Shown: positions 31,349 through 46,989 of the stretch, one piece after another
Layout: each line of letters begins with the position of its first letter
How positions within the stretch are numbered: position 1 is the first letter of the stretch
Source of the DNA: Methanomicrobia archaeon
GTDB taxonomy: Archaea > Methanobacteriota_B > Thermococci > Methanofastidiosales > NM3
Direction of reading: 5' to 3'
DNA: 64,000 nt
Assembly (NCBI GenBank): GCA_030603445.1
Contig: JAUVXU010000008.1
Span: 16,770-80,769, forward strand
The notes under the pieces: generated by a model
Seen by the model: the letters and a program-made list of their open reading frames with translations, nothing else
What the model was told of the DNA's origin: nothing
Database searches by the model: none
Made by a program: the position numbers and the translations under genes

Positions 31349-32350
31349 ATGAAAGCAGCTATTTGTACAAAATATGGCCCCCCAGATGTTCTTCAGCTTA
31401 AAGAAATAGAAAAACCTATTCCTAGGGACAATGAAATACTGGTAAAAGTATATGCAACAACAGTAACGGCAGGGGACGTGAGACTTCGAAGTTCCACATT
31501 TCCTCCCTTGTTCTGGCTCCCCGCGCGAATAATGTTTGGTCTCAGAAAACCAAAAAGACCCATATTAGGGATGGAGCTATCCGGGGAAATTGAAATAGTA
31601 GGCAAGGACGTAAAACGATTTAAGAAAGGTGACCAAGTTTTTGGAACCACCACAGGATTGAGTTCTGGTTCTTATGCCGAGTATATTTGTATACCTGAAG
31701 AACCTTTATCCGCAGGTATGTTTGGAGCTAATGTGGTAACACTAAAACCGACTAATATGGACTATGAGGAAGCTGCCGCCGTTCCTATTGGAGGGCTTAC
31801 AGCACTGCATTTTCTTAGAAAAGGAGATATCCAAAGCGGACAAAAAATTCTTATCTATGGGGCTTCGGGAAGTGTAGGCACTTTTGCGGTACAGCTTGCC
31901 AAGTACTTTGGAGCAGAAGTTACCGGGGTATGCAGTACCGCAAATTTAGAATTAGTGAAATCTCTGGGAGCCGATAAGGTGATTGATTACACTAAAGAGG
32001 ATTTTAACAAAAGCGGCGAGACCTATGATGTTATTTTTGACACGGTAGGTAAGAGTTCGTTTTCAGATTGTAAAAGATCGCTAAAGAAAAATGGGTTCAT
32101 TCTTTTAACCACCCCGAGGCTGTCATATATTGTTCAAGGCCTTTGGTCTTCAATGAAAGTAATAACAGGGGGAGCATCCGAAAAGCCCGAAGATTTAAAC
32201 TTCCTCAAAGAGCTTATTGAAGCGGGAAAGATAAAATCAGCCATAGATAGACGCCATCCGTTGGAACAAATTGTCGAGGCTCACCGGTATGTTGACAAAG
32301 GACACAAAAAAGGAAATGTAGTAATCACTGTGGGACATAATAACAAATAA
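31349..32350 (+). CDS. NAD(P)H-dependent medium-chain oxidoreductase (quinone oxidoreductase/ADH family)
   Basis: [15 protein letters not shown] Rossmann motif; MDR architecture. Confidence 0.85.
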
Positions 32351-32362
32351 ATAATAAAAAGG

Positions 32363-32818
32363 ATGGGAACAAAAGTGAAAACGTTAATAATATGTAAATC
32401 CATACATAACGGGAACACAGAAAGAATTGCTAAAAAGATGGCTAAAATATTGAATGCTGATTTGATAGAACCTGAAGAATTAAACAATATTATGGAATAT
32501 GATCTAATAGGTTTTGGTTCTGGCATTTATAATTCTAAACATCATCAATCTCTATTAGATCTAGCAGATAAATTACCAGACTTCAAAGAGAAAAAAGTTT
32601 TTGTTTTTTCAACATCAGGTGTAATACAAAAGCGATTTCACAGAAGTTTAAAGGGAAAACTAGAGGAAAAAAATGCGGTAATAGTTGATGAATTCTTTTG
32701 TAAAGGGTTTAATAAAAACAGTGTGTTGAAATATATTGGTGGAATGAATAAAGGGAGACCTAATGAAGATGATCTCAAAAAAGCAGAGGATTTCGCAAAG
32801 AAAATGAAAGAGAAATGA
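32363..32818 (+). CDS. flavodoxin-like protein
   Basis: TLIICKSIHNGNTERIAK flavodoxin-type FMN loop. Confidence 0.55.
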   Translation: MGTKVKTLIICKSIHNGNTERIAKKMAKILNADLIEPEELNNIMEYDLIGFGSGIYNSKHHQSLLDLADKLPDFKEKKVFVFSTSGVIQKRFHRSLKGKLEEKNAVIVDEFFCKGFNKNSVLKYIGGMNKGRPNEDDLKKAEDFAKKMKEK

Positions 32819-33004
32819 TATACTAATTTTTGAAATTAATTTCTAATCTTAAATAAATGAAAGTCAATTGCCACAATAGGAATTCCTCCTTCACTTTCTA
32901 GTAAAATCTTTCCAGCATGACCCGTTTAATGCAATAGCATTAAGCAAATGAGTTTACTCTCTCTTGGCCTCTTTTGTCGCTGGTAAATTAATGGCGCTAC
33001 GAAC

Positions 33005-33090
33005 GGTTAACACCAGGATTATGAGGGATCTGCGAAACAAACTTGAGTGAGAGAGTACAACGAATCGGGCCTCATAAGCCGTGTTATATG
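33005..33090. repeat. attC-like imperfect palindrome A (GGTTAAC ... GTTATAT)
   Basis: Arms caggattatgaggg / cctcataagcc pair across a variable loop. Core-like heptamers at both ends. 81 nt 3' of the minus-strand HD gene. Confidence 0.5.
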
Positions 33091-33170
33091 AAGTGAACGA
33101 AGCGCGAGGAATAAGAGTGCAGTATCCCGGGGCGACTGAAATGAACGAAAGCGTTGGACTGGGAGCAAAT

Positions 33171-33695
33171 TTAGGTTTCTGCAATCCCATTATATTTTTT
33201 AACCAATTCTTTGTAGAGGACTTCATCTTTTATTACGTCTCTAGAATTTTCAATGAAATACTTCAATTTTTCAAACAGCCATTTTGATAATTCTTTTGTT
33301 GAAGCAAGATGATAATAATCAATATTATCAAAAAAATCAGCAGTTTTAATGATTAAAGCATCTTTTCCAGCTTTGCGACAACGCATGAAATTCTCTTTGT
33401 ATCTTTCAGTTTTATCCTTAATACTTTCGTCAAAGCTATTTGCTTCAACTAACTTAGCAATTTTACTGCCGAATTTTGATTTAACTTCCTCAATTTTTGT
33501 GTCAGTATCCTCAACCACATCATGCAAAATAGCTGCGACCACAATGTCTTCATCATATCCTAAATTATAAAGATGAAGTCCGATTCTAATACTATGCAAA
33601 ATTACTGGCTTAGGATTTTTCCCAGATTCATGGATTGTAAAAACTAGAAACTTTATTGCTTCTTCAATTTGTTTATCAACTTCAGGACTTTTCAC
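33171..33695 (-). CDS. HD-domain phosphohydrolase
   Basis: H..HD...D metal-binding motifs (ILHDVVEDT). Confidence 0.75.
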   Translation of the reverse strand: MKSPEVDKQIEEAIKFLVFTIHESGKNPKPVILHSIRIGLHLYNLGYDEDIVVAAILHDVVEDTDTKIEEVKSKFGSKIAKLVEANSFDESIKDKTERYKENFMRCRKAGKDALIIKTADFFDNIDYYHLASTKELSKWLFEKLKYFIENSRDVIKDEVLYKELVKKYNGIAET

Positions 33696-33746
33696 AAGTA
33701 TTAGATAAATTGATAGGTATTATAAAAATTGTTCTAGTCCAATACC

Positions 33747-33834
33747 GTATAACATCAAGATTATGAGAAATTTACACAGCAAATTTGAGTGGAACGAGAT
33801 GCAACCGAGCGTAACGACATAATCCTTGTTAAGT
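33747..33834. repeat. attC-like imperfect palindrome B (GTATAAC ... GTTAAGT)
   Basis: Arms catcaagattatgag / cataatccttg pair. Homologous in layout to A and C but with covarying arm sequence. Confidence 0.5.
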
Positions 33835-33894
33835 GAGGCGAAGCTAGAGTGCAACGTCCCGAAGGGCTGGCGAGAGTTTAAAAAAATAAAATCG

Positions 33895-34284
33895 CTACTC
33901 TTTTAGTTCAGAGAAAACCAAAATATACCCATTGAGATCTCTTACGGCAAACTCTTTTGCCCCGTAAAATGTCTCTCTCATATCTCTGACAATTTCAACT
34001 TTCTCTTTAACAGAATCATACAAGGATTGCACATCTTCTACTTCGATATAAAACGTTAAGCTTGCGCCAATTTTCTTTCCCTTGAGAACAGGCATCTCTT
34101 TGACCAAGCTTTCTTCTTTCTGAAAGAAAATTTGTACACCATCTGCTTTCACAACAGCCCAGTCAAGTGGTTCATCAAGAGAATCCCCCTTGTTTGCAAA
34201 CTTAAAGTTGAAAATGTCTTTATACCATTTTACGGTTGCATTTACATCGGCGACCATAATATTTGGCGTGAGTGTTTTGTACAT
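33895..34284 (-). CDS. VOC/glyoxalase/bleomycin-resistance family protein
   Basis: 129-aa beta-alpha-beta-beta-beta fold pattern typical of VOC proteins. Confidence 0.75.
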   Translation of the reverse strand: MYKTLTPNIMVADVNATVKWYKDIFNFKFANKGDSLDEPLDWAVVKADGVQIFFQKEESLVKEMPVLKGKKIGASLTFYIEVEDVQSLYDSVKEKVEIVRDMRETFYGAKEFAVRDLNGYILVFSELKE

Positions 34285-34336
34285 ATTATTTAGTTAATAC
34301 CTTAAATATAATAAATGTTTTGTTTTTTTAAATTTC

Positions 34337-34435
34337 ACTTAACATCACGATTAAAAGAAGTTCGGCGCAACCAAATTTGGATGAAGAAACCTACAAGTTT
34401 TCGGAATCTTTTAATCGCTGTTAAGCTCTCCACAG
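34337..34435. repeat. attC-like imperfect palindrome C (ACTTAAC ... GTTAAGC)
   Basis: Near-perfect arms cttaacatcacgattaaaagaagttcg / cggaatcttttaatcgctgttaag with bulged bases; inner palindromic loop caaatttgg. Confidence 0.55.
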
Positions 34436-34768
34436 GATTGAATTTTAGTGCAACGTTCCGTAGCGAAGCGGAGGAAAAATTCAAAGTAAATTTGAAGTCC
34501 GTTCCTTTCAAAGAGCTTTATCGATACATCAAGAACAAGAATCAAAGGGTAGTTTTCTTATAATTATCTTCTATATCATAAAAAAAAATCCCGATTTTTT
34601 CAGGAGTTGTTTTTATTTTTGTTGAAGATTTGATTATGTACTTATAACCCTAACTACGCTCTTTTTATCTCCTATAAGCATTGAATCATTTTTTGTTGCC
34701 ATCAAAAAAAGTATGCCATCAGTAAGGTATATATATGAATAAAATTTACATATTTAAGAGGTGTACTA

Positions 34769-35689
34769 ATGAAAAAAGCACTATTTTTAAGTTTACTTAT
34801 CATAGCACCATTACTTACATTATCAGGATGTATTAGTGGTGACGAGAATATAGATGCCTGGAATGACCAGATAGGAACTATCAATTCGTATATAGATACG
34901 GCCAATTCCATGCAAGGCGAGATAAATGATGCTCTAGACCAAGGACATTACGACCTTGCGATTAGCAAGATAAATGATGCGATCTCAAAATATCAGACCG
35001 CCCTAAACGAGATAATAAAACTAGAGCCCATAGCCCAAGACCTTGACAAGGATTTCCTTGATGATTATGTTGATGTGTGGCAGCTCCAAACAAACAAAGT
35101 TATAGAGAGCATTGAACATCTTAAAAAAATGGTATATACTGAACAATTTAGCATTGAACTTGATAATCTTATCCTTATCTTTAGTGGTGCCGACCAGCAG
35201 TACGTTGATGCAGTAGGATACTTCAATAATAGCAATTATGCTGCATGCGTATCTACAGCTGAACTTGCAAAACAAAAGTACAATATGATGGCAGGATATG
35301 CAGACAAGATGTCGGAGTTATCCCAACTACTCAATGTTGATCATGTGAAGCAATATGCATCATATTGTGTATCAATGATTGAGAATGCAGACATATCATT
35401 AGACAATCTTATGCTAAGTGCAAATGCCGCCTACGTCTCTGATTGGGACAATGCAAACTATTACCTTGGATTACAAAATACATATAACTCTGCTTACAAT
35501 GCAGATTACGATAAAATAATTGGAATCGAGAATACGTATCCTGAAGACTTCCCTGCACAAGGTAAAGCATTGCAATCTCTTTACAATATGTATTTTTCAA
35601 AGAAAGAACAGGCAGAACAGGCAGCTACAAGTTACACAAACACTATGAATAATATAGAAGAAGAGAATTCTGACTTCTTTGAGGAATAA
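34769..35689 (+). CDS. hypothetical lipoprotein
   Basis: Signal plus lipobox LLTLSGC; Q/N/D/Y-rich helical body. Confidence 0.55.
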   Translation: MKKALFLSLLIIAPLLTLSGCISGDENIDAWNDQIGTINSYIDTANSMQGEINDALDQGHYDLAISKINDAISKYQTALNEIIKLEPIAQDLDKDFLDDYVDVWQLQTNKVIESIEHLKKMVYTEQFSIELDNLILIFSGADQQYVDAVGYFNNSNYAACVSTAELAKQKYNMMAGYADKMSELSQLLNVDHVKQYASYCVSMIENADISLDNLMLSANAAYVSDWDNANYYLGLQNTYNSAYNADYDKIIGIENTYPEDFPAQGKALQSLYNMYFSKKEQAEQAATSYTNTMNNIEEENSDFFEE

Positions 35690-35757
35690 TACTCCTCTTT
35701 TTTCCTTATTTTTAATAATTTAAAAAATTGCCCTTATTTTAAATATTTACAAAATAG

Positions 35758-35831
35758 TGGGCCTAAGGGGATTTGAACCCCTGACCGCCCGGTTATGAGC
35801 CGGGAGCTCCACCAAACTAAGCTATAGGCCC
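35758..35831 (-). tRNA. tRNA-Met (anticodon CAT; could be Ile2/CAU)
   Basis: Reverse complement folds as a cloverleaf: GGGCCTA acceptor, anticodon loop CTCATAA, T-loop GGTTCAAATCC; no encoded CCA. Confidence 0.85.
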
Positions 35832-35933
35832 AAATAATAGCGTGAATCATTCTTGCATATAGGATATAAAAGGCTTTCGGACAAGGAAAAAACAAGGAAA
35901 CCAAAGCCATATATCATCAAAAAAAAACGTGCA

Positions 35934-36009
35934 TGGCGCCGTCAGCAGGACTCGAACCTGCGACCATCCGCTTAACAGGCGGGCGCTCTACCAACTGAGC
36001 TATGACGGC
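35934..36009 (-). tRNA. tRNA-Asn (GTT)
   Basis: Acceptor GCCGTCA/TGACGGC, anticodon loop CTGTTAA, T-loop GGTTCGAGTCC, encoded CCA. Confidence 0.85.
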
Positions 36010-36179
36010 ATAAATAAGAAAACAATTTTTTTAATTTAAAAAGTTTTCGTAGGTGTTGCTATTTTATTTTATTTAATAATATTTTCGCTTCCACCTAACT
36101 GTGTTTAGGGTATTTCTTAAAAAAACTTTCATTATTTTCAATAGTCAAATATTTAAAAGAGAAATATCCAAAAATAATC

Positions 36180-37409
36180 ATGTTAATTAAATTCAAACCT
36201 GAAGAATTCAGGGTTGAAGAAGTAAGCACTACTCGTCACGAAAAAAACGACTGTACAATCTTCACAGTTGAAAAAACAAACTGGGACACTACACTACTTG
36301 TAAAAGAGATTGCGAAAAGAGCTGGTGTTTCACAAAAAAGGGTAGGATATGCAGGACTAAAAGATAAAACAGCGCATTCGACCCAGAAGATGTCAATATA
36401 TGGAATTGGTGAAGATGTACTACGCTTGATAAAAATCCCAAATGTTCTATTATGTGAGTTCGAAAAAGGAGACCGAATTCAAATTGGTGACCTTAAAGGT
36501 AACCAATTTTCAGTTGTGGTCCGAGACATCAATATGGATAAATCCTCAATAGAATCCGCCATAAAGCGCTCCAATGAAAGATTCAACGCATATTATGGTT
36601 TCATAAATTACTTCGGCTACCAAAGATTCGGTATTCAGCGCCCAGTAACAGCAGAAGTTGGAAAATATATTGTTAAGAAAGACTATGAACAAGCCGCCAT
36701 GACGTACCTGGCCAAACCATACCCTCTTGACCCCAACAAAGAATTGCGACAAGAGCTTCTCAATGATTATGATTTTAAGAAGGCATATGAAACATTTCCT
36801 CCCTCTCTTAAATATGAGAGATCAATGTTATTTATGCTAGCCAACGAAGGAAAAGATTTCAAGCAGTGTTTCAATGCGCTTCCTGAGCGCCTCCAAACAC
36901 TTTTCGTGCATGCGTACCAAGCTGAAATATTTAACAGAATAGTTAAAAAAAGAATAAAAGACATACCTCCAAATGAGGCAGAAATCGGCGATATCATCAT
37001 GATAGATAAATTTGAGAAAAACGCTATTACCAAAGTTAACGCTTTTAACTTTAGCAAAGTTCAAAAAATGTTAAAGGAAAACGTATCTGTAGCAGTCCCA
37101 TTGGTAGGATCAAAAACAAAAATTCCTTGTTCTCGTATAGGGGAGATAACAAAAGAAGTAATGGATTTCGAAAATATTACATTTGAAGATTTTCATGATC
37201 CAGACTCCAAAACATTCTCATCTGCAGGTTTTTATAGAGGAATGCTGGGAAGATTTTCAAATCTTTGTTACGAAATATCAGAAGATGAACAATTTGGGGC
37301 AAATAAATGCATTTTTTCATTCTATCTTCAGAAAGGCCAATATGCAACAGTGTTCTTGCAACAGATATTTGATGAAGAAATCATCCCATATAGGAGCATA
37401 ACGTTATGA
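36180..37409 (+). CDS. truD: tRNA pseudouridine synthase TruD/Pus7-like
   Basis: GYAGLKDKTA (GxKDxxA catalytic Asp motif); N-terminal FKPEEFRVEEV. Confidence 0.75.
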   Translation: MLIKFKPEEFRVEEVSTTRHEKNDCTIFTVEKTNWDTTLLVKEIAKRAGVSQKRVGYAGLKDKTAHSTQKMSIYGIGEDVLRLIKIPNVLLCEFEKGDRIQIGDLKGNQFSVVVRDINMDKSSIESAIKRSNERFNAYYGFINYFGYQRFGIQRPVTAEVGKYIVKKDYEQAAMTYLAKPYPLDPNKELRQELLNDYDFKKAYETFPPSLKYERSMLFMLANEGKDFKQCFNALPERLQTLFVHAYQAEIFNRIVKKRIKDIPPNEAEIGDIIMIDKFEKNAITKVNAFNFSKVQKMLKENVSVAVPLVGSKTKIPCSRIGEITKEVMDFENITFEDFHDPDSKTFSSAGFYRGMLGRFSNLCYEISEDEQFGANKCIFSFYLQKGQYATVFLQQIFDEEIIPYRSITL

Positions 37410-38293
37410 ACTACTTACCTTTTCTCATATTAATATTATTTTTATCAATAACATATATAGCGGGAAATTATCTTTGGTTAAAGATAATACACAAAGATAC
37501 ATATTACTTCAATTTACTATATTGTGGATTTGCAACAATATGCCTGATAATAGCATTAACATTAGTAACGCTTACACCTGAAGCAGGAGACATGTTCAAA
37601 CAGCGCCTTATTATAGATTGTATCCAAAGCGCTATTGCAATAATGCTCTTAATCATGCTGCATAAGAAAGTTGTGTGGAAAGACCTACTACGCCAAATAA
37701 ATAAAGATAGACAATTCATATTAATAACAACAATATTTCTATTAGTTGGCATACTTCTTGGATTTGTTATACAAGAACAAGTGCTTGAATTTGTGGAACA
37801 ACCATTTGAAAGCCTTGAAGAACTTGCAAATTTGGCAGAAGGAAAACCATTTTGGGAAATTAGTATCCTCCTTTTTGGAAACAACTCTAGAGCTGCAATA
37901 AATATGAGCCTTGTTTTTCCCTTGATCCCGGTTATAGGTGGAATATACGTAATATTTTCTATGTTACTTAACGGCGCCATTATCGGGATTATTGGAGGAA
38001 TAATAGACAAACCCGCCCTTTATCTTATTGTTGGCCTTATGCCACACGGGATATTTGAGATACCTGCAATCATACTTGCAGCAAGTATTGGTTTAAAACT
38101 AAGTATTTTTTTATCAAAAGGTATTATTAGAGCGATTCAAGATAAGGAAAGAAACGCTACATCAATTCTTATCGAGCATCTGCGTTATGGCACAGAATCT
38201 TTTAAAGTCTTATATATTGTTATCTTATTATTGATCATAGCCGCCATTTTAGAATCCACCATCACCCCTGCACTCCTTGCATATTTAGATTAA
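37406..38293 (+). CDS. SpoIIM/DUF95-like polytopic membrane protein
   Basis: Multiple TM helices; MPHGIFEIPAI motif. Confidence 0.5.
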   Translation: MNYLPFLILILFLSITYIAGNYLWLKIIHKDTYYFNLLYCGFATICLIIALTLVTLTPEAGDMFKQRLIIDCIQSAIAIMLLIMLHKKVVWKDLLRQINKDRQFILITTIFLLVGILLGFVIQEQVLEFVEQPFESLEELANLAEGKPFWEISILLFGNNSRAAINMSLVFPLIPVIGGIYVIFSMLLNGAIIGIIGGIIDKPALYLIVGLMPHGIFEIPAIILAASIGLKLSIFLSKGIIRAIQDKERNATSILIEHLRYGTESFKVLYIVILLLIIAAILESTITPALLAYLD

Positions 38294-38561
38294 TAAAAGG
38301 GGAAAACATTAAATTTGAAACTGTTAATTAATCCATATAAAGAAAAATAATATACAAAAACCATAAATCTTAAATACAAGCCATATAAAAAGAGAATAAA
38401 CAGAATATAGTTCGATATATTAAAACACAAAATATATAAATAAAACATTAATAAAGCTAAATTACCAAGTTAACATGACGAACTACATTGTGCTTTTGAA
38501 TGTTTAAAACGTATGATTTTGTCTACAAGAAAATAAGCATCAGAAACACAAAGGTGAGAGT

Positions 38562-40061
38562 ATGAAAGAAATAAAAAAAACAAAATCTATATGCCCCGAA
38601 TGTTTTCAAGTTATTGATGCAACGCTCTATGAAAAAAACGGGAAAATAATAATGGAAAAAGAGTGTAGCGAACATGGTCATTTTAGCGATATTGTCTGGT
38701 CTGATGCAAAATATTACCACTGGGCAGAATCGTATATGCATGATGGAACAGGTTTATCTAATCCACAAACAAAAGGAGATGATAACTGCCCATATGCATG
38801 TGGCATATGCAACAATCACCTTACATCCACATTACTTGCAAATATTGATATAACAAACAGATGCAATATGCACTGCCCAATTTGTTTTGCAAATGCAGCT
38901 GCTGCAGGATATGTATTAGAACCATCAAAAAGCGAGATAACAACTATTTTAGAAAATCTGGTAAATGAGAAACCAGTACGTTGCTGGGGAGTTCAATTCT
39001 CTGGGGGAGAGCCTACAATACGAGACGATTTTCCAGAAATAATTGCTGAGGCAAAACGTCTAGGCTTTACACAAATTCAAATTGCAACAAATGGCAAGAG
39101 ATTTTCAAAAGACCCAGAATTTGCCAAAAAAGTTCTAGATTCCGGAGTAAACACAGTATACTTACAATTCGATGGCATTAATGAAGCCCCATATATTGCA
39201 GCTAGAGGGTACAACGCACTTCCAGAAAAATTGAAGGCAATTAAGAACATGCGTGACGTGGGATATACTTCTGTGGTGTTAGTTCCGACACTTGTAAAAG
39301 GAGTAAATGATGATCAAGTGGGAGATATTGTTCGCTTCGCAATGGACAATGGAGACATTATAAAAGGCGTGAACTTTCAACCAGTTTCTTTTTCAGGAAG
39401 AATCGACAAAGAAGAATTAGAGAAGAAGCGTATCACGATTCCAGATCTTGGCAATCTTCTGGAAGAACAGACAAAAGGACAAATAGGGAAAAAGGACCTA
39501 TATCCTGTACCCAGCGTCTCAGTTGTTTCGGACATTATTGCTAAATGGAAACAAACACCCCAAGTAAGCCTTACATGCCATGCACACTGTGGTGTTGGTA
39601 CTTATCTGTTCAAAAATAATGGAGATATAATCCCAATTACACGATTTGTCGATGTTGATGGCTTGTTCAGTCTTTTAAAAGAAGTAAATGATGATATGGG
39701 AAATGGCGGGAAAATCGCAAAAGTAAAAGCTGTCACGAAGTTAAGCCGAGAAATACCTAAACTAATAGACAACTCGAAAGCACCAGATGGCCTCAATCTT
39801 AGAAACCTGCTGCTAAATATTATAACAAACGGCACAGTAGAGGATACTGCTGCTTTCCACAACAATACTTTGTTCCTTGGAGCTATGCACTTTATGGACC
39901 CATATAACTTTGACTTAGAACGTGTGTGTCGTTGTGGGATCCATTACGGCCTTCTTGATGGACGTGTTATACCATTTTGTACGTACAATACTTTGCATAG
40001 AGAAAAATTCGAAAAGAAGTATGGCATACCTCTTTCTGAATGGAAAAAACACAATAAATAA
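38562..40061 (+). CDS. radical SAM enzyme with N-terminal rubredoxin-like Cys cluster (possible tetraether lipid synthase Tes/GDGT-MAS-like)
   Basis: CPECF...CSEHGH plus CPYACGICNNH precede the CNMHCPICFA (Cx3Cx2C) radical SAM core; 499 aa. Confidence 0.8.
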   Translation: MKEIKKTKSICPECFQVIDATLYEKNGKIIMEKECSEHGHFSDIVWSDAKYYHWAESYMHDGTGLSNPQTKGDDNCPYACGICNNHLTSTLLANIDITNRCNMHCPICFANAAAAGYVLEPSKSEITTILENLVNEKPVRCWGVQFSGGEPTIRDDFPEIIAEAKRLGFTQIQIATNGKRFSKDPEFAKKVLDSGVNTVYLQFDGINEAPYIAARGYNALPEKLKAIKNMRDVGYTSVVLVPTLVKGVNDDQVGDIVRFAMDNGDIIKGVNFQPVSFSGRIDKEELEKKRITIPDLGNLLEEQTKGQIGKKDLYPVPSVSVVSDIIAKWKQTPQVSLTCHAHCGVGTYLFKNNGDIIPITRFVDVDGLFSLLKEVNDDMGNGGKIAKVKAVTKLSREIPKLIDNSKAPDGLNLRNLLLNIITNGTVEDTAAFHNNTLFLGAMHFMDPYNFDLERVCRCGIHYGLLDGRVIPFCTYNTLHREKFEKKYGIPLSEWKKHNK

Positions 40062-40131
40062 TCGTGGAGTAATCATTACTTCCCCATATTTTTTTAATAT
40101 TGACAAATAAAGGAACGAAACATTTATAATC

Positions 40132-40554
40132 ATGGATAGATTATCCATCCATGGTGATACTTTGGAAAAAAGAAACATGATGATGGCCGCCATAGTCGCT
40201 TTTGTTGTAATAGTCTCTATTGTAGGAACATATAATTACACTCAAAGGGACTCGGATAAAGCAACAGTAACGCTAATTATAGATTTCAACGGGTTTGGAG
40301 AAAACGTAACATATGAAAACGTCAAGATGCCAGAAAGTTCCACAGTGCTTGATTTGCTCAATAATAAGACGGACCTACAAACTGAAGATACGTCATTTGG
40401 AAAGATGGTAGTATCGATTAATGATGTAGCGCAAGATGCAGACAGTAACTTGTGGTGGACATACACCATAAACGATGAGTACGCTGCAGCTGGGGCAGAA
40501 GTACAGTTGCTCAACGATGGGGACATCATAAAATGGACTCTGAGTCAGTTCTAA
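40132..40554 (+). CDS. DUF4430-like (transcobalamin-like) membrane-anchored binding protein
   Basis: N-terminal TM; NLWWTYTINDEYAAAGAEVQLLNDGDIIKW signature. Confidence 0.55.
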   Translation: MDRLSIHGDTLEKRNMMMAAIVAFVVIVSIVGTYNYTQRDSDKATVTLIIDFNGFGENVTYENVKMPESSTVLDLLNNKTDLQTEDTSFGKMVVSINDVAQDADSNLWWTYTINDEYAAAGAEVQLLNDGDIIKWTLSQF

Positions 40555-41084
40555 AATATAATGGTAGCAAAAAAATTGTACTGCTCTCAATATTCGTGGC
40601 ATTGGGGGCAGTCTTTAAAGTATTCCTAGCAGTGATACCAAACGTAGAACTGGTAACTTTTTGGGTATTTGTAGTAACAATGGTCTACGGGGTAAAAATG
40701 GGATTCCTTACAGGATTTCTCTCAAATATCCTAGCTGATACGTATATCGGCGCAGGACCGTGGACCCCTTTTATTTCTCTTGCCTTTGGAATTGTAGCAA
40801 TAATAACCCACTTTTATGCAAAAGCAGGATTTAACTCTAAAAAAGATTATATTTATTGTGGCATCCTTGTAACAGTAGTTTTCGATCTTTTTACAGTAGT
40901 AACAACAACGTGGCTAATACTCGGCGTCCCACTCCCTGTAGCACTATATATGCAATATGGCATAATGCCGCCCCTATTCTATCCTTTTGGTATTGTGCAT
41001 ACTGTCTCCAATGCCGCAATATTCTCAATTGCCAGTGTGAAGATTATAAGTGTGCTAAAAACGAATTCCAGCATTTTTTATTAA
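40533..41084 (+). CDS. ECF-transporter S-component-like membrane protein
   Basis: Five to six TM helices, about 180 aa, overlapping the DUF4430 gene end (cotranscribed pair). Confidence 0.5.
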   Translation: MDSESVLKYNGSKKIVLLSIFVALGAVFKVFLAVIPNVELVTFWVFVVTMVYGVKMGFLTGFLSNILADTYIGAGPWTPFISLAFGIVAIITHFYAKAGFNSKKDYIYCGILVTVVFDLFTVVTTTWLILGVPLPVALYMQYGIMPPLFYPFGIVHTVSNAAIFSIASVKIISVLKTNSSIFY

Positions 41085-41097
41085 ATAATACATAACA

Positions 41098-42291
41098 TCA
41101 CTTAAGTAATGTCCTTGCTCTATCTCCAATTCTATCAGAATCAACATAGCATTGCTCAAGTCCAGGGACAACTACTCTCACAACAGATACGCCAACATCC
41201 TTGTTAGTGAGATCTACAACAGAAACTATGGGAAATCCCTTAGAAGATAATATACTTACCAACGCTTCTATATCATCACGCACATATTCTGTAGACAAAG
41301 AGGCAGTCTCTGAAAAAGATAATTTCTGATCACTTGAAGAATACCACATCTTATTCATGCGTTTGATACGATCATAGCCTAGTTTTCTTTTGAAGGCGGA
41401 TGCACTTGGATTTTCAGAATTAATCTTTATCTGGGTAAGCCTGCTTTGGGCAACTTCGGTTATGGCCCTTAAAAGTGCCACCCGGGGGTCTAAATGGGTG
41501 CCAACACCGATGTTTAAAAGAGTTGGATCTTTTAGCTTCACATCATCAGAAACTGCCACAAATGTTGGAATTCCAAGATCTGAAGTGATATCTTTTATAC
41601 CAATCTCTACATCTGCATCAGAGAATTTATCAATCAATTTACATGTTTGGTTATCATTCGTATCAATCTTTACATCAAATGGTGTTCTTTTCACAATTTC
41701 TGCAAGAGACCATGCATCACGCTCTATAACTTCACATAAGGCATGCAAAATAGCTTCCTCAATACAATTGCCTGATGCCAAGCCGTTAGTATTTGAGCGA
41801 AATATCCATCCGTATCTGGGTGGAAACGGATGAAAGACTGCATTAGAAGGAATATAAACGCCTTGTTTATCCACAAGATTAAAACCCTTGGTCCAACCAA
41901 TTGTCATCCCCTCACTATAAGAATAAGGGTTTGGAAGCACCAAAGATGCGGGACGAATATAGTTAATAGGCAACTGTGAAGCTGCAGCAATTGTCACCAT
42001 GTCCTCGTTTAACTCAGAACTCTGGCGTTCGATAGCTTCCATCATTGCAGAGACTTTTGCCTCAATAGCTGTTGTTCCTTTGCCATTGTATACTTGTACT
42101 CCATTCCCATTAGAAACTGTTCTGCAAGATATAAAAACAGGTATTCCAATCCTGTCAAGATGAGTAATCTCCTCAACGTTAGTAACGCCGATAGCAGACA
42201 TCTTATTTTTTATCCTCGTGTATGTCTCTTCAGGATCAATTACCCTATGGGTGGTATCGACATATTTTTTTCTACATCGAGAAAGTTCCAT
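41098..42291 (-). CDS. ycaO: YcaO-domain protein
   Basis: YNGKGTTAIEAKVSAMMEAIER ATP-binding YcaO block; about 400 aa. Confidence 0.8.
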   Translation of the reverse strand: MELSRCRKKYVDTTHRVIDPEETYTRIKNKMSAIGVTNVEEITHLDRIGIPVFISCRTVSNGNGVQVYNGKGTTAIEAKVSAMMEAIERQSSELNEDMVTIAAASQLPINYIRPASLVLPNPYSYSEGMTIGWTKGFNLVDKQGVYIPSNAVFHPFPPRYGWIFRSNTNGLASGNCIEEAILHALCEVIERDAWSLAEIVKRTPFDVKIDTNDNQTCKLIDKFSDADVEIGIKDITSDLGIPTFVAVSDDVKLKDPTLLNIGVGTHLDPRVALLRAITEVAQSRLTQIKINSENPSASAFKRKLGYDRIKRMNKMWYSSSDQKLSFSETASLSTEYVRDDIEALVSILSSKGFPIVSVVDLTNKDVGVSVVRVVVPGLEQCYVDSDRIGDRARTLLK

Positions 42292-42413
42292 AGAAAATAC
42301 AAAAACAAAACACTATAATAATCTTCCCTTTTAACATAGGGACATATCTATGTATTTCCTTAACAACTAGCTATATCATGCAATGAAGTAGAAATATTAA
42401 ATAGTTTCTACAA

Positions 42414-42668
42414 TTAGATGTTATATATATAATTTGACGATGTAACATCCTTTTGATGCATAGCACCTTTTGATATAGATGTTTTCATAGGTGTCCATGA
42501 ATTCATCCTATAGTCGCTTACTCTTGTCGTTGCAATTGTACCAAGACTCAATAACGCAGCACCAATGTATAACATCCAAAAAGTATTAGCTACAACTACT
42601 GGATTTTTGAATGCTAGAAATAACATTCCTGCTAAAACCGAGAACACAAACAGCATTTTTGATAACAT
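42414..42668 (-). CDS. hypothetical small membrane protein
   Basis: Two predicted TM helices; sits in the AT-rich island. Confidence 0.3.
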   Translation of the reverse strand: MLSKMLFVFSVLAGMLFLAFKNPVVVANTFWMLYIGAALLSLGTIATTRVSDYRMNSWTPMKTSISKGAMHQKDVTSSNYIYNI

Positions 42669-43220
42669 TCTTTTCCCACCCTGTATTTGTATAATGAAGA
42701 CTCATTATACTAAATTTAATGTATATATTGGTATTACAATACCTATATACATATAGATATGAAGATATGTTATATTTAAATCTTTCGATAGAAAAGGTAT
42801 ATTAAGACCAATATTCTTTAATATACTCTAGCATGTGATACAAAATGGCATTACACTCTCTAAAAAATATGTGTCACTAGGAAAAAAATTATATAAAAAC
42901 ATTTTATTATCATTTTTTCAAAACTGTTACTAAACATTATATTGAATTAAAATACTAAAAAAATAAAAATAGATAAGAGGAACAGTGAGTCCATCGCGAC
43001 TTGAACGCGAGGCTTTCTTCATGTCAAGTCCTGATATGACGTGATCGAATCATCTCTTGACTGCCTTTGTATATTATGTCAAATACAACAATATCTCCAA
43101 AAATATTTGATGATTTCCGGTGTTCGCCTCCTATGACGAAGGCATGAATTCTGATAATGGATAATAAGGAATAAGCGATATTCTTGGAAATCTAGCAGAA
43201 ATACTGAAAATAATAAGAAA

Positions 43221-43297
43221 TGGTGGGCCCGTCGAGATTTGAACTCGAGACCTCCGCCATGTCAAGGCGACGTCATAGCCAACTAGACCACGGGCCC
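43221..43297 (-). tRNA. tRNA-Val (GAC)
   Basis: Acceptor GGGCCCG/CGGGCCC, anticodon loop TTGACAT, T-loop GAGTTCAAATCTC, encoded CCA. Confidence 0.85.
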
Positions 43298-43360
43298 AAT
43301 GTTATCAAGCAAAATAGGATTTTTATTTGTCTTTAAAAAACTTACTATTTGATAGCGAGC

Positions 43361-43549
43361 CTATTCTATTTTAGCCATAACAAATGCAAATATCCCTGCA
43401 AACAGCAATGCAATGATCACTGCACCTTTAAGGAAATAAATTAATTGTTGAGACCAATCAACAATACCATATGGCACCGCCAAATAAAGAGACACCGCAA
43501 TCATTAATAAACCAATTATAACCCACAAAATTTTATTCATAGTTAACAC
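43361..43549 (-). CDS. hypothetical small membrane protein
   Basis: 62 aa, two TM helices. Confidence 0.35.
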   Translation of the reverse strand: MLTMNKILWVIIGLLMIAVSLYLAVPYGIVDWSQQLIYFLKGAVIIALLFAGIFAFVMAKIE

Positions 43550-43696
43550 CCTCCAATATTTTATGGACTATGTATTTATTAGTGCTTATAAATTTACTCC
43601 CTAATAACCTATAAAATATGAATTATAATTTTATTTAAAAGATATAAAAGCCATAAAAAGAAAATACTTTAATACTAAGATTATACAATACTTAAT

Positions 43697-44662
43697 ATGC
43701 TCCCAATTACCTTCTCATCCCCGGCGCGGGTTGATTTATCCGGTGGTGCAGCAGACATCTTCGGACTTAGCACTCTTTCGGTTGCTATTGACATAAGAGC
43801 GTACTGTACTATCAAACAGAATGAACAAGGAACGATTGTGGCAAATATTGGAAAAGGCGAAATACCTATCTCAATGGCATATGCGCCACCATACGCGATA
43901 TTAAAGCATATTGTTCAGCATTTCTCATTAAATGAAGCAATAACAATTGAGATAAAAACGGATATTCCGATGTCTGGCGGGCTTGGTGGATCAGCCTCCA
44001 TTTCAGTTGCAGTGATTAGCGCCTTGAATAAATGGAAAAATTGGGGGTTGACACGCTACCATATTGCAGAACATGCTCAAAGGGTGGAAACTGTTGAGAT
44101 GAAGTTAAAAAATGGTTATCAAGATCAGTACTGCTCGGCCTTTGGTAAATGTGTTTTTATGGACTTCAAAAATAAAGAGAATAGGGATATAGGGGAAGAA
44201 CCATATGCTATAGTAGAACAGTTGCCAATTCCATACACGATTGTTGTGGCACATACAGGGATCAAACATAACTCGGGAGATGTGAATGCACAGACATATA
44301 ATCTCTATCATAAAGGCGATACGAGCACTATAAAAAACATCATGCGTCTGGACACCATAACACGAGAACTTAGGTCGGCCCTAATAGATAAAGATTTTTC
44401 TAAAACATGTAATATCATATCAGAAAATCAAGAAATAATAAAAAAGTTTAAACGATCCCTCCCAGAGAATGAAAAACTTATAGATGTAGCTATGAACTCG
44501 GGTGCTGGTGCTGCAAAGGTAACTGGAGCAGGATGCGGGGGATCGATTGCAGCACTGTGTGAAACTCCAGATATTGCACAAAATGTGGCATCTGCATTAA
44601 GAAAACATTCACAGTTTGTAAAAATATGTTCTGTTGCAGAAGGTGTGAGATATGAAGTATGA
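43697..44662 (+). CDS. GHMP-family kinase (specificity unknown)
   Basis: PMSGGLGGSASISVA GHMP ATP-binding motif. Confidence 0.75.
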   Translation: MLPITFSSPARVDLSGGAADIFGLSTLSVAIDIRAYCTIKQNEQGTIVANIGKGEIPISMAYAPPYAILKHIVQHFSLNEAITIEIKTDIPMSGGLGGSASISVAVISALNKWKNWGLTRYHIAEHAQRVETVEMKLKNGYQDQYCSAFGKCVFMDFKNKENRDIGEEPYAIVEQLPIPYTIVVAHTGIKHNSGDVNAQTYNLYHKGDTSTIKNIMRLDTITRELRSALIDKDFSKTCNIISENQEIIKKFKRSLPENEKLIDVAMNSGAGAAKVTGAGCGGSIAALCETPDIAQNVASALRKHSQFVKICSVAEGVRYEV

Positions 44663-45401
44663 TACAGTAGTCTTTGACTTAGATGGCGTTCTTTTAGAAG
44701 AAGGGAAGCTTACTTCCGAGGGAAAAATAGGAATAGAAATGCTTTTTGAGAAAGGCGTTCGTGTTATCTATTCATCCGGGAAAAATTATTGGTACACGGC
44801 CGGAGGCATCTCCTTCTCAAATATTATCAAGGACGACACAATAATCATAGCAGAAAATGGAGGCATCATATTCTTTCCATTGACAAAGGAGAAGTTGGTC
44901 TTGTCACAAGGATATGGCAATATTGCAAAATTAGCAGAATATTTCTATAAGGAACACTGCACAAAAGATGGCAACCATACTGTGTTTAAAGACACAGGCG
45001 GTATCATATGGCAGGAGCCCAAGGAAACAATATTTACATTATTCCCCAAAGATAAAAACACGATCCCCATACTAAAAAAAGTACTTGAAGATATCATAAT
45101 TCACTTGAATTTCCCTGTTTATGCAATAGACCACTCTGATGCAGTTGACATAATGCCATTAAAGCAGCACAAAGGAAATGCACTCAAATACCTATCTAAT
45201 AAAGGAATTATCAATATGGAAAAAACTGTAGCCTTTGGCGATGGAAACAACGATAAAGAGATGCTTGAGGAAGTTGGTATGCCAGTAACCGTTGACAACG
45301 CAAGTGACGCCATAAAACATATTGTAAGAAGTAGAGAAGGAATAATAACATCAAAAGGATATGGTAAAGGCGTGCTAGAAGCAATAGAACACTTGTTTTA
45401 A
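44652..45401 (+). CDS. HAD-superfamily Cof-type phosphatase
   Basis: VVFDLDGVLL motif I, GDGNNDKEML motif IV; overlaps the kinase gene end. Confidence 0.7.
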   Translation: MKYDTVVFDLDGVLLEEGKLTSEGKIGIEMLFEKGVRVIYSSGKNYWYTAGGISFSNIIKDDTIIIAENGGIIFFPLTKEKLVLSQGYGNIAKLAEYFYKEHCTKDGNHTVFKDTGGIIWQEPKETIFTLFPKDKNTIPILKKVLEDIIIHLNFPVYAIDHSDAVDIMPLKQHKGNALKYLSNKGIINMEKTVAFGDGNNDKEMLEEVGMPVTVDNASDAIKHIVRSREGIITSKGYGKGVLEAIEHLF

Positions 45402-45408
45402 GCAATCT

Positions 45409-46989
45409 CTATCTAATCTCAACCTCTACTGTGAAAAATACTGGGCCACGAACATCTATTTTGTTGTTCTTCATCTGGATAAAAGTGCGCATCTCATCAG
45501 GTATTGCAAGATTGACGTCTTTTAGGCGTTTTGCCATGCCAAAATAATACTGCTTTTTTCCAGTAAAAGAGGACTTGAGCAGTTCCTCTACGTCCTTTGC
45601 AACCTTAAATAGGAACGCATCGATATATGTAGTACCAGTAGAAACTCCATTCTCAGCAACATTTTCTAGCTTTCCTGACAACCCTTCCGGAGGTATTCCA
45701 TATATGTTTCCCTGGTATGCATAAACCATATTGAATGCAGCTGGTCCAAGGAGATTCTTGTTCTCCTCCTTTTCACTGATGCGGACCACTACGTTCTTTG
45801 CATACAAATCGCCCTCGAAAACCACATATTCACAAGGGCTTTTCTCATTTCCATACTTCCTTGCTGCAGAAGATATTATTTCAATCAATGGGGCCATTTC
45901 ATCTGTTTGTGGTTTCTCGATAAATGATATTGAATTGGCTATCTCCTCATCTGTAAAAGATAATGAATAAAACTCAGGATGATGCAACTGCCGCAAATCA
46001 TCCTCATCCTCAAGTAACATTATCAAGCGGCCCAATCCCGGGCCAGAATTAAACACAGGGTATGGTATGCCATAATGCGCAAGCGCGATAGGGGAGTACA
46101 TTCCCACTTCTGTAACCTCAACCCATCCAAAACGATCATCTTTCACAAATACCTCATAATTAGTGCCATAAGCATAGTAAATGGCTTGATTGGGTTTTTT
46201 CTTGAATTTCAGTTTTTTGAATCCCATCCTGTTGAAAAATTCCTTTGTAATGTATATTCCGTCTGCAATATTTAGATTCTCGTCCATAGCCACCATTGAA
46301 AGATTGTAATGGGCACGCAGATGCATAGGGTCCTCACGTTGCTCCCTGCGGTAACGCCAGCCGGAAGTAAATAGCATCACCGGCAGTGATACCTTTTTAA
46401 CAAATTGTGCAAGTGTGGGGAACCATGCTGTCGTGAAATGAGAGTTTAGCACCATATCTGTAGCCAATGGTTTGATATCTAACACTTCAGGGAATGCCTC
46501 ATTAATAATATACATCGCATCCTCGGGAGAAACTTTTAATCGCTTTGCTATCTCTTCGCTAAGGTCTCCAGGATCTATTTTATCAAGTTTATAATCTCTA
46601 AATATATTTTTTAGTTTCCCCATATCAAGAGAAGGCACTTTTTTAAATACTTCATTTTTTTTATCATCAGATATGCCAATATCTGGTCTTGGGAGAGTTG
46701 CAAGAAAATATAATCTATCAAGTATCGCAGGTGACTCGGGCCCATATTGCATTTCCACGTGCTTTTTAGAGAAAAATTGTTTTAGATAAACTTCATCAAA
46801 ACCCATATCCAATAAAATATCACGAGATTTCAATGCATATTTGGATAGGAGATGTTCTTTTCCTTTTTTTTCAGGAAAATTAAATGTGCGTTTTCCTTCA
46901 AAATAAGATCCTGTGTTTTTCCACTCTTTAAAAAAATCTTCCTTAGAGCGTTTCAGGATATCTTCAATAGGAAACATTGTTATTCTCAC
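45409..46989 (-). CDS. sepS: O-phosphoseryl-tRNA(Cys) ligase
   Basis: PheRS-alpha-like class II core. Blocks GKEHLL, LYFLATLPRPDIGIS, GWRYRREQ and C-terminal KIDVRGPVFFTVEVEI match SepRS as recalled from memory. Confidence 0.75.
   Translation of the reverse strand: MRITMFPIEDILKRSKEDFFKEWKNTGSYFEGKRTFNFPEKKGKEHLLSKYALKSRDILLDMGFDEVYLKQFFSKKHVEMQYGPESPAILDRLYFLATLPRPDIGISDDKKNEVFKKVPSLDMGKLKNIFRDYKLDKIDPGDLSEEIAKRLKVSPEDAMYIINEAFPEVLDIKPLATDMVLNSHFTTAWFPTLAQFVKKVSLPVMLFTSGWRYRREQREDPMHLRAHYNLSMVAMDENLNIADGIYITKEFFNRMGFKKLKFKKKPNQAIYYAYGTNYEVFVKDDRFGWVEVTEVGMYSPIALAHYGIPYPVFNSGPGLGRLIMLLEDEDDLRQLHHPEFYSLSFTDEEIANSISFIEKPQTDEMAPLIEIISSAARKYGNEKSPCEYVVFEGDLYAKNVVVRISEKEENKNLLGPAAFNMVYAYQGNIYGIPPEGLSGKLENVAENGVSTGTTYIDAFLFKVAKDVEELLKSSFTGKKQYYFGMAKRLKDVNLAIPDEMRTFIQMKNNKIDVRGPVFFTVEVEIR

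Follow-up and report, generated by a model that had tools for sequence, protein, structure and literature searches.

Integrons are the textbook platform for gene capture, and nearly all archaeal examples known so far are orphan clusters of attC sites. Such a group is called a CALIN (cluster of attC sites lacking an integron integrase) when at least two attC sites lie less than 4 kb apart and no intI is found nearby. In integrative mobile elements exploiting Xer (IMEX) and in the pdif modules of Acinetobacter, accessory genes are mobilised at dif-like sites by the Xer-family resolvase of chromosome dimers, and both are bounded by 28-bp double-stranded sites with an 11-6-11 layout. Here, we analyze a 64,000-nt stretch of a contig from a Methanomicrobia archaeon (GenBank assembly GCA_030603445.1, contig JAUVXU010000008.1; hereafter, the window), in which three hairpin-forming palindromes (e1, e2 and e3) flank two small genes. 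The original prediction, made from the sequence alone, had taken this segment for an archaeal cassette array of the integron type that lacks an integrase, and the core of that reading is supported. The region at ~33005-34505 quite probably represents a small group of structure-specific recombination sites flanking two accessory cassettes with promoters of their own (VOC, then HD), with no recombinase nearby.

The closest described systems are the archaeal CALINs reported by Ghaly et al. 2022 (PMC9668308, Data S1/S3). These comprise CALINs in Methanofastidiosum (16 attCs, 0 IntI) and a CALIN in Pacearchaeales (three attCs) from the same GTDB species as one of the contigs compared here (L011). 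In that study, the sites were defined by a bacterial attC model (IntegronFinder) and the integrases by the IntI-specific domain, and archaeal attCs were recombined by IntI1 in E. coli. Since archaeal CALINs are thus already published, also for this methanogen class, the feature in the window is not categorically new, and the novelty claimed for it originally was overstated.

Architecture of the array

The three elements are homologous imperfect palindromes of ~90 nt (86-99 nt), all in the same orientation (alignment A1), whose starts lie 742 and 590 nt apart (Table 1). Their positions and terminal heptamers (GGTTAAC/GTTATAT in e1, GTATAAC/GTTAAGT in e2 and ACTTAAC/GTTAAGC in e3) are found in the sequence as predicted. 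They share a common anatomy of an outer R box (TAACA/TGTTA), a one-sided bulge of 2-3 nt in the 5' arm on the + strand and an L box of 9-12 bp. In e1, the R box TTAACA/TGTTAT is combined with a CC bulge, present in the 5' arm only, and the L box GGATTATGAGG/CCTCATAAGCC, and the inner frame contains CAAACTTGAGTG. Element e2 carries the R box ATAACA/TGTTAA, a TC bulge and an imperfect L box (AGATTATGAG/CATAATCC). The best-folding copy is e3 (-13.7 kcal/mol on the + strand and -16.8 kcal/mol on the - strand as single-stranded DNA), with the R box CTTAACA/TGTTAAG, a 3x1 internal loop and the L box CGATTAAAAGAAGTTCG/CGGAATCTTTTAATCG. The arms had been described as different between copies, which holds for e3 and not for e1 and e2, where they are nearly the same. 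The central loops, which had been thought to differ as well, instead share a frame of (G)AAGTT, a small hairpin, CAAAyTTGrrTG and a second small hairpin.

A second module of 55-75 nt follows each hairpin on its 3' side on the + strand and holds AGTGCAACG (at 33118, 33848 and 34448). As this module is conserved behind each hairpin, the unit as a whole measures ~150-170 nt. In the cassette reading, module 2 of e1 is located between the stop codon of the HD gene and the hairpin. The layout of module 2 of e3 is nearly identical to that of the modules at 1316 and 5607 of a Pacearchaeota contig (L012).

Table 1. Features of the array and its flanks (coordinates are those of the window; R1 is the covariance model of the repeat family).
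Feature	Position	Strand	Evidence or remark
e1 hairpin	33005..33090	+	R1 match 33002-33092, 71.7 bits, E 1.6e-15; single-stranded DNA fold
e1 module 2: small hairpins and AGAGTGCAGTATCCCGG	33091..33165	+	alignment A1
Cargo gene 1: 174-aa HD-domain protein (HD_4, small ppGpp-hydrolase-like)	33171..33695	-	Pfam PF13328, 6.2e-13
e2 hairpin	33747..33834	+	R1 match 33744-33837, 68.6 bits
e2 module 2: GCTAG-AGTGCAACG-TCCCGAAGGG-CTGGC, stem around C-GAA-G minihairpin	33835..33890	+	motif also 3' of Pacearchaeota elements
Cargo gene 2: 129-aa VOC/glyoxalase-family protein	33895..34284	-	Pfam PF00903, 2.9e-10
e3 hairpin	34337..34435	+	R1 match 34334-34429, 76.4 bits
e3 module 2: stem TTGAATTTT/AAAATTCAA around AGTGCAACG and GCGAAGC minihairpin	34436..34505	+	
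Flavodoxin-like gene (left flank)	32363..32818	+	Pfam, composition profile
Right edge of variable segment	34506..34633	.	blastn against relatives
Gene of 306 aa, no Pfam match, syntenic in relatives	34769..35689	+	
tRNA-Met and tRNA-Asn	35757-36009	-	followed by TruD

Exactly three copies are present in the 64 kb according to both nhmmer and R1 (run with filters off), with R1 scores of 68.6-76.4 bits (E 1e-14 to 1e-16); the next-best R1 matches are the reverse strands of e1-e3 themselves, at 20 bits or less. When the elements are folded individually as single-stranded DNA, the z-scores on the + strand are -1.55 (e1), -0.17 (e2) and -2.41 (e3), and on the - strand only e3 reaches -3.87. The single-sequence folding of e1 and e2 is thus unremarkable, so that the case rests on comparison with relatives. 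By a count of GNA triloops with stems of at least 3 bp, the three window elements are not enriched; by a count of the simpler C-GNA-G motif, they are (6 in ~500 nt vs 1.7 per kb).

Imperfect palindromes with conserved termini are also typical of mobile repeats, and an insertion sequence (IS) transposase fragment is found at the equivalent locus in relatives (see below). It is nevertheless extremely unlikely that e1-e3 are miniature inverted-repeat transposable elements (MITEs), transposon-end remnants or repetitive extragenic palindromic (REP)-like sequences spread by a transposase. There are only three copies, gathered in one 1.5-kb cluster in a single orientation rather than dispersed, no target-site duplications are visible in the sequence around them, and the sequence of their inner arms is not conserved but covaries from copy to copy. 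At the loci examined, the family is, moreover, restricted to arrays beside xer. The window elements thus show the defining traits neither of MITE- or REP-like repeats nor of Xer/dif modules (IMEX, pdif): no 11-6-11 dif core is present in them.

Both cargo genes appear to have a promoter of their own. A TATA-like TTTTTATAATA box lies directly upstream of the HD gene, at 33696-33746, and the VOC gene is preceded by a TATA-like box (TTTATTATATTTAAG, - strand) at 34285-34336, in a promoter stretch that is conserved in two relatives (L030 and L031). The claim that each hairpin lies 3' of a minus-strand open reading frame (ORF) is accurate for e1 and e2; e3 has no minus-strand ORF upstream. The HD protein has homologs with 82% identity in Woesearchaeota, 71% in Nanoarchaeota and 77-78% in Patescibacteria. 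Taking the homologs P0197, P0211, P0213 and P0228 together, identities of 71-83% are observed among Methanofastidiosia, Woesearchaeota, Nanoarchaeota and Patescibacteria (candidate phyla radiation (CPR) bacteria), which suggests recent cross-domain transfer of the HD gene among small-genome organisms. The neighbouring TruD, by comparison, is only 56% identical to its counterpart in the nearest other genus, so that the cargo appears to belong to a horizontally shared pool. The VOC protein is the single member of its 90% cluster.

No tyrosine recombinase is encoded in the 64 kb, as judged by tblastn and by a search of a Xer/IntI1 profile against all 278 stop-to-stop ORFs (best E 0.13). An attI-like site is likewise absent from the window, and no dif-like GGATAT...ATATCC site occurs there above chance; among the loci examined, the latter is found only in the xer-proximal position of Pacearchaeota arrays. 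As the window has neither a tyrosine recombinase nor an attI-like site, its description as integron-like and integrase-less is supported. The components of a complete integron (an IntI with the additional domain, an adjacent attI and a Pc promoter) are not present in the window. Elements e1-e3 do form a CALIN, provided that they count as attC-like.

A covarying repeat family in archaeal metagenomes

A pattern scan of metagenome contigs retrieved low-GC contigs in which copies of this element are arrayed among small ORFs (L004/L005 and L002), and the family is abundant in contigs of Pacearchaeota. Element e1 is 79% identical over 108 nt to the fifth element of L004, and e2 is conserved in relatives (L030 9859-9952, 65.7 bits). 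A scan for the pairing of TAAC...GTTA arms gave mostly noise and was replaced by covariance models. In contig L003 (GC 50%), the pattern matched the 5' half only, within apparent coding DNA, and we regard this hit as partial or fortuitous.

An alignment of 10 copies yields 23 consensus pairs, 13 of which show compensatory changes. With 27 copies aligned to the model, 94% of the pair cells are paired, compared to 29-51% in controls slid by 1-3 columns; double changes occur in 16 of the 23 pairs, and the observed values are reached in none of 500 shuffles. The outer TAAC/GTTA pairs are invariant across these 27 copies, while the L box covaries in nine of its 10 pairs. This is the logic of attC sites, with an outer box that is sequence-specific and an inner box that is structure-specific.

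The two strands are not equivalent. G.T pairs, which are valid on the + strand only, outnumber A.C pairs by 44 to 12, and minihairpins with GNA triloops are more frequent on the + strand of the arrays (93 vs 31), compared to 69 vs 53 in adjacent housekeeping DNA. Together, the excess of G.T pairs and the strand bias of the triloops, which is clear in the Pacearchaeota arrays only, indicate that one strand is the folding strand. This strand was assigned from the geometry relative to xer, the G.T vs A.C counts and the loop bias. An assignment from ORF orientation was dropped, as orientation is mixed in the arrays.

Covariation and a G.T strand bias of this kind would also be expected of a transcribed structure, and e1 and e2 do lie directly 3' of ORFs. 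We nonetheless regard it as very unlikely that the elements are structured RNA motifs (stabilisers in 3' untranslated regions, terminators or small RNAs) that travel with genes. The better-folding + strand is antisense to both ORFs of the window, and the Pacearchaeota elements keep a single orientation despite the mixed orientation of the ORFs, occur only upstream of xer and delimit cassette gains and losses that are exact at AACAT (see below). Their loops are mostly C-GNA-G triloops, which are typical of stable DNA minihairpins and not of RNA, and a search of the elements against Rfam gave no match, even at E ≤ 1.

Some members of the family are hybrid or rearranged. In L004 (8520-8620; element 1, beside tRNA-Gln) and L002 (730-825 and 5500-5600), a 5' arm from one hairpin type is fused to a 3' arm from a different type, or the halves stand in swapped order, such that these elements cannot fold; they may be scars of recombination inside the conserved inner frame. 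A G-rich motif, GGGGCGGGTGG(TCGGGGG), recurs at the ends of Pacearchaeota cassettes, ~100 nt downstream of the hairpins (e.g., L012 2640-2660 and 8075-8095, and upstream of xer in L009), and is absent from the window. In L012, a stretch of ~90 nt with this motif is duplicated, with one copy to the left of a hairpin and the other to the left of the xer-proximal site. A G-quadruplex and a promoter element are both possibilities for this motif.

A XerA-type recombinase and exact junctions in Pacearchaeota

The array of L004 ends at a gene for a 267-aa tyrosine recombinase, whose homologs (65-76% identical) are named Candidatus Pacearchaeota. The protein passes the equivalog cut-off for archaeal XerA (239.7 vs 220 bits) and falls below that for integron integrases (TIGR02249; 215 vs 265 bits), the model being matched in two pieces. 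In an alignment with IntI1, this recombinase and its relatives show 31-35% identity; every catalytic residue is retained, and IntI1 residues ~197-234, which form the IntI-specific insertion, are missing from them. At four independent xer loci of Pacearchaeota (L006, L007, L009/L010 and L011/L012), every R1 match is located upstream of the xerA-type gene, on the same strand as this gene, and the downstream side is free of matches. The elements keep a single orientation here and the ORFs between them are mixed, while the genes downstream of xer are housekeeping genes that vary by genome (dnaJ, SRP54, TruB, RNA methyltransferase). In these housekeeping flanks, SRP54 and ribonucleotide reductase genes that contain inteins (Intein_splicing and LAGLIDADG) are present as well (L007 10823-13927, L006 15038-18124).

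Directly upstream of every Pacearchaeota xer, a YTAACAT motif is followed by an imperfect palindrome with GGATATWAAC arms (e.g., L011 9954-10000 and L006 ~9935-9990, and also in L007 and L009), the arms being 11 nt long and the spacer 6-9 nt. In archaeal dif sites, two inverted repeats of 11 nt flank a spacer of 6 nt (PMC8371274). By its sequence, the xer-proximal site resembles archaeal dif; it may serve as chromosomal dif, as attI or in both roles. The annotated start of the Xer protein of L011 (P0074; 10001-10846, 281 aa) is probably too far upstream: its orthologs measure 267-271 aa, and its first 12-14 codons overlap a conserved promoter-like stretch, TAGTAAC...TTTTTATA.

Contigs that encode an identical Xer protein differ by the presence or absence of whole cassettes. 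A block of 4,518 bp with three cassettes (L011 5436-9953), located between the R box of a hairpin and the xer-proximal site, is present in L011 and absent from L026: positions 1-879 of L026 correspond to L011 4557-5435 and positions 875-1789 to L011 9954-10868, both at 100% identity, and the two segments overlap by the 5 nt AACAT. The junction of L026 is found again in L024, from a different sample, and the contigs L022 and L023 start exactly at AACAT. In L020 (3147-9953) and L011 (2916-9953), 6.8-7 kb of unrelated cassettes are enclosed by flanks that are 99.9% identical. As read from these contig comparisons, the AACAT junctions are the signature of a site-specific exchange of the attI x attC type in a short common core. 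Assemblies break in or exactly at hairpins or core sites (L032 1-66, GCA_054798795.1; position 1 of L022 and L023), so that short-read metagenome-assembled genomes will tend to under-report such arrays and split them from the recombinase gene.

Comparison with attC sites and integrons

IntI recombines attC sites on their folded bottom strand, with the crossover at G|TT of the core. The elements share part of their definition with attC sites. Their length falls within the range of attC (~55-150 nt), the heptamers of the window fit RYYYAAC/GTTRRRY loosely, and the inner box (L''/L') is conserved in structure and not in sequence. Two other hallmarks are lacking, namely the unpaired central spacer between the R and L boxes and the extrahelical bases (a G in L'' and a T) that attC sites show on the recombined bottom strand. 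Where attC sites have ~5-6 unpaired nt on each side as a spacer, the window elements have a bulge of 2-3 nt in one arm (CC, TC, TCA), and their L box holds no conserved unpaired base, unlike aadA1 and other class-1 sites (A4). A check of the folds proposed with the original prediction thus finds the R and L boxes and no extrahelical base in the L box. By function-like criteria, the elements may be called attC, and they are candidate members of that class.

A proxy attC model (R2), built from 16 attCs of class-1 cassettes on plasmids, recovers all its own sites at 37-77 bits. In the window, this small and GC-rich proxy gives 10.8 bits (E 2.9) on the minus strand of e3 and nothing for e1 and e2, and it finds nothing on the Pacearchaeota copies. 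Conversely, R1 has no match in class-1 arrays. Because R2 is small and GC-rich, the model test is not final.

The elements could also be canonical integron attC sites, i.e., a true CALIN whose IntI, with its IntI-specific domain, is encoded elsewhere in the genome or by other organisms. The loosely fitting heptamers, the R-box and L-box logic, the IntegronFinder-called CALINs in Methanofastidiosum and in the GTDB species of L011, and the recombination of archaeal attCs by IntI1 (PMC9668308) speak for this. We consider it unlikely in view of the low R2 scores and the absence of R1 matches in class-1 arrays, of the one-sided bulge in place of the unpaired spacer and the missing extrahelical base, and of the adjacent recombinase without the IntI insertion at every Pacearchaeota locus examined.

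Several features are shared with bacterial integrons all the same. In Pacearchaeota, a tyrosine recombinase gene, with which the folding strand is co-directional, lies beside a one-orientation array of structured repeats; the outer AAC/GTT box is kept in sequence and the inner box in structure only; the crossover falls in a GTT-containing core (AACAT at the junctions, ATGTT on the other strand); and the repeats are similar within a lineage, while cassette content varies between strains. In contrast to bacterial integrons, the Pacearchaeota recombinase lacks the ~38-aa IntI insertion that contacts extrahelical bases, the R and L boxes are contiguous but for a one-sided bulge, the cassettes are self-promoted, with mixed ORF orientation and often several genes, and inverted, dif-like arms of 11 nt are present in the proximal site. 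The window differs further by having neither recombinase nor attI.

The archaeal CALINs (PMC9668308) are similar in being integrase-less clusters of attC-like sites in archaeal metagenome-assembled genomes, and in a cargo of acetyltransferases, restriction-modification genes and small proteins of unknown function. They differ in that the hairpins here lack the canonical spacer and extrahelical geometry and carry extra conserved modules, and in that the Pacearchaeota arrays are not orphaned but adjoin a XerA-type gene and a dif-like site. With IMEX and pdif modules, the Pacearchaeota loci have in common a recombinase that passes the XerA cut-off and a proximal site that resembles dif; the ~90-nt hairpins, the separate 5-nt crossover core and the tandem one-orientation arrays set them apart. 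The papers searched give no account of the non-canonical site architecture, of the constant XerA/dif-like linkage in DPANN or of the AACAT junctions.

Cassette mobility in the lineage of the window

The window shares 94.5% identity with close relatives (L027-L029) along 11 kb (34633-45672; blastn). To the left of the equivalent of position 34633, these relatives carry unrelated small ORFs and an IS transposase fragment, and R1 has no match in them. Where the window has the array, L027 (1-350) and L028 (1-170) hold the C-terminal fragment of an IS-type transposase and a split DUF-like ORF. The three contigs all end at most ~1.4 kb left of the 34633 equivalent, so that the locus appears to be a population hotspot.

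The cassettes themselves are found elsewhere. From 34329 to 33116, the window is 89-91% identical to a block located between NfeD/Band7 and URO-D/B12-binding genes in L030, L031 and L032. The shared block contains the VOC promoter, the VOC gene, module 2 and the hairpin of e2, the HD gene and most of module 2 of e1. It ends at 34329, ~10 nt from the R box of e3, and at the other end within module 2 of e1; past this latter end (33116), the relatives carry a different hairpin with another L box. Rigid conservation of the segment had been named as an observation that would count against an array of cassettes. This is not what is seen among relatives, in which the VOC-HD block is placed elsewhere and the locus of the window holds different DNA. 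As far as aligned contigs can tell, this difference in location is direct comparative evidence that the window cassettes move.

A mechanism can be proposed in which the + strand of the window, as related loci suggest, would fold as single-stranded DNA and a tyrosine recombinase acting in trans would recognise the folded R/L stem. Strand exchange would take place inside AACAT at the 5' end of the folding strand (the GTT of ATGTT on the other strand), with another hairpin or the xer-proximal site as partner. Cassettes with the order promoter, ORF, module 2 and hairpin would be excised and reinserted, and the intermediates would be resolved by replication, as in integrons. The probable catalyst in Pacearchaeota is the XerA-type protein encoded next to the array; its own dif-like arms would lie in the proximal site. 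The window cassettes would have been moved by the same chemistry, presumably with a XerA-like catalyst, and would be expressed from their own TATA-like promoters. Since they are orphaned from a cis recombinase, their movement would require an enzyme from elsewhere in the genome or from another cell.

Several points weigh against a cluster of structure-specific recombination sites in the window. Recombination of the window elements themselves is not observed; the exact junctions come from Pacearchaeota contigs. The two ends of the block shared with L030-L032 are not both accounted for by one simple crossover at AACAT. The class-1 attC model of 16 sites scores the elements as noise, with the limits of this small, GC-rich proxy stated above, and the canonical unpaired central spacer and the extrahelical base of the L box are missing. 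Finally, e1 and e2 fold weakly and the L box of e2 has defects, for which reasons the array may be decaying.

Genomic context

The host is archaeal, as predicted, and methanogen-like: the window encodes YcaO methanogenesis marker 1, SepRS, archaeal AlaRS, LonB and archaeal GlmM, and the 90% clusters of TruD and the HD protein include proteins named Candidatus Methanofastidiosia. On the left, 186 nt of non-coding DNA separate the flavodoxin-like gene from e1. The GC content is 28-31% at 32200-32950, which covers this gene and its surroundings, compared to 38% window-wide; because of this low GC content, the flavodoxin-like gene may itself be accessory and part of the variable segment. Its protein shares a 90% cluster with a single further sequence, from a contig of 906 nt. 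On the right, ~260 nt of non-coding DNA lie between the e3 unit and the 306-aa gene. The adjacency of tRNA genes, which had been part of the original description, proves incidental: they are 1.3 kb away, beyond the syntenic 306-aa gene. A reading as a tRNA-targeted island was rejected, as the tRNA genes fall outside the variable segment, which ends at ~34633.

Implications

The window provides a chromosomal example of such an array in a methanogen lineage. That the HD cargo is nearly identical between Methanofastidiosia, DPANN archaea and CPR bacteria is the mark of a cassette pool shared across domains. Beyond the window, we tentatively propose, as a possibility that we would not yet favor over its contrary, that Pacearchaeota (DPANN) possess an integron analogue run by a XerA-type recombinase without the IntI insertion. 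In this analogue, the dif-like site upstream of xerA would act as attI, sites composed of a ~90-nt hairpin and module 2 would be exchanged at AACAT on a folded single strand, and the array of the window would be an offshoot of the same cassette pool. If this holds, the CALINs published for these lineages would represent entire platforms with an unrecognised integrase, and cassettes would be trafficked between ultra-small symbionts and methanogens (a hairpin 79% identical to a Pacearchaeota one, and HD cargo 71-83% identical to DPANN and CPR proteins). If XerA is indeed the catalyst, the hairpin, the AACAT core and the dif-like site would be defined substrates for biochemistry, an integron-like system would be shown to work without the IntI-specific domain, and this would bear on the origin of integrases from Xer recombinases.

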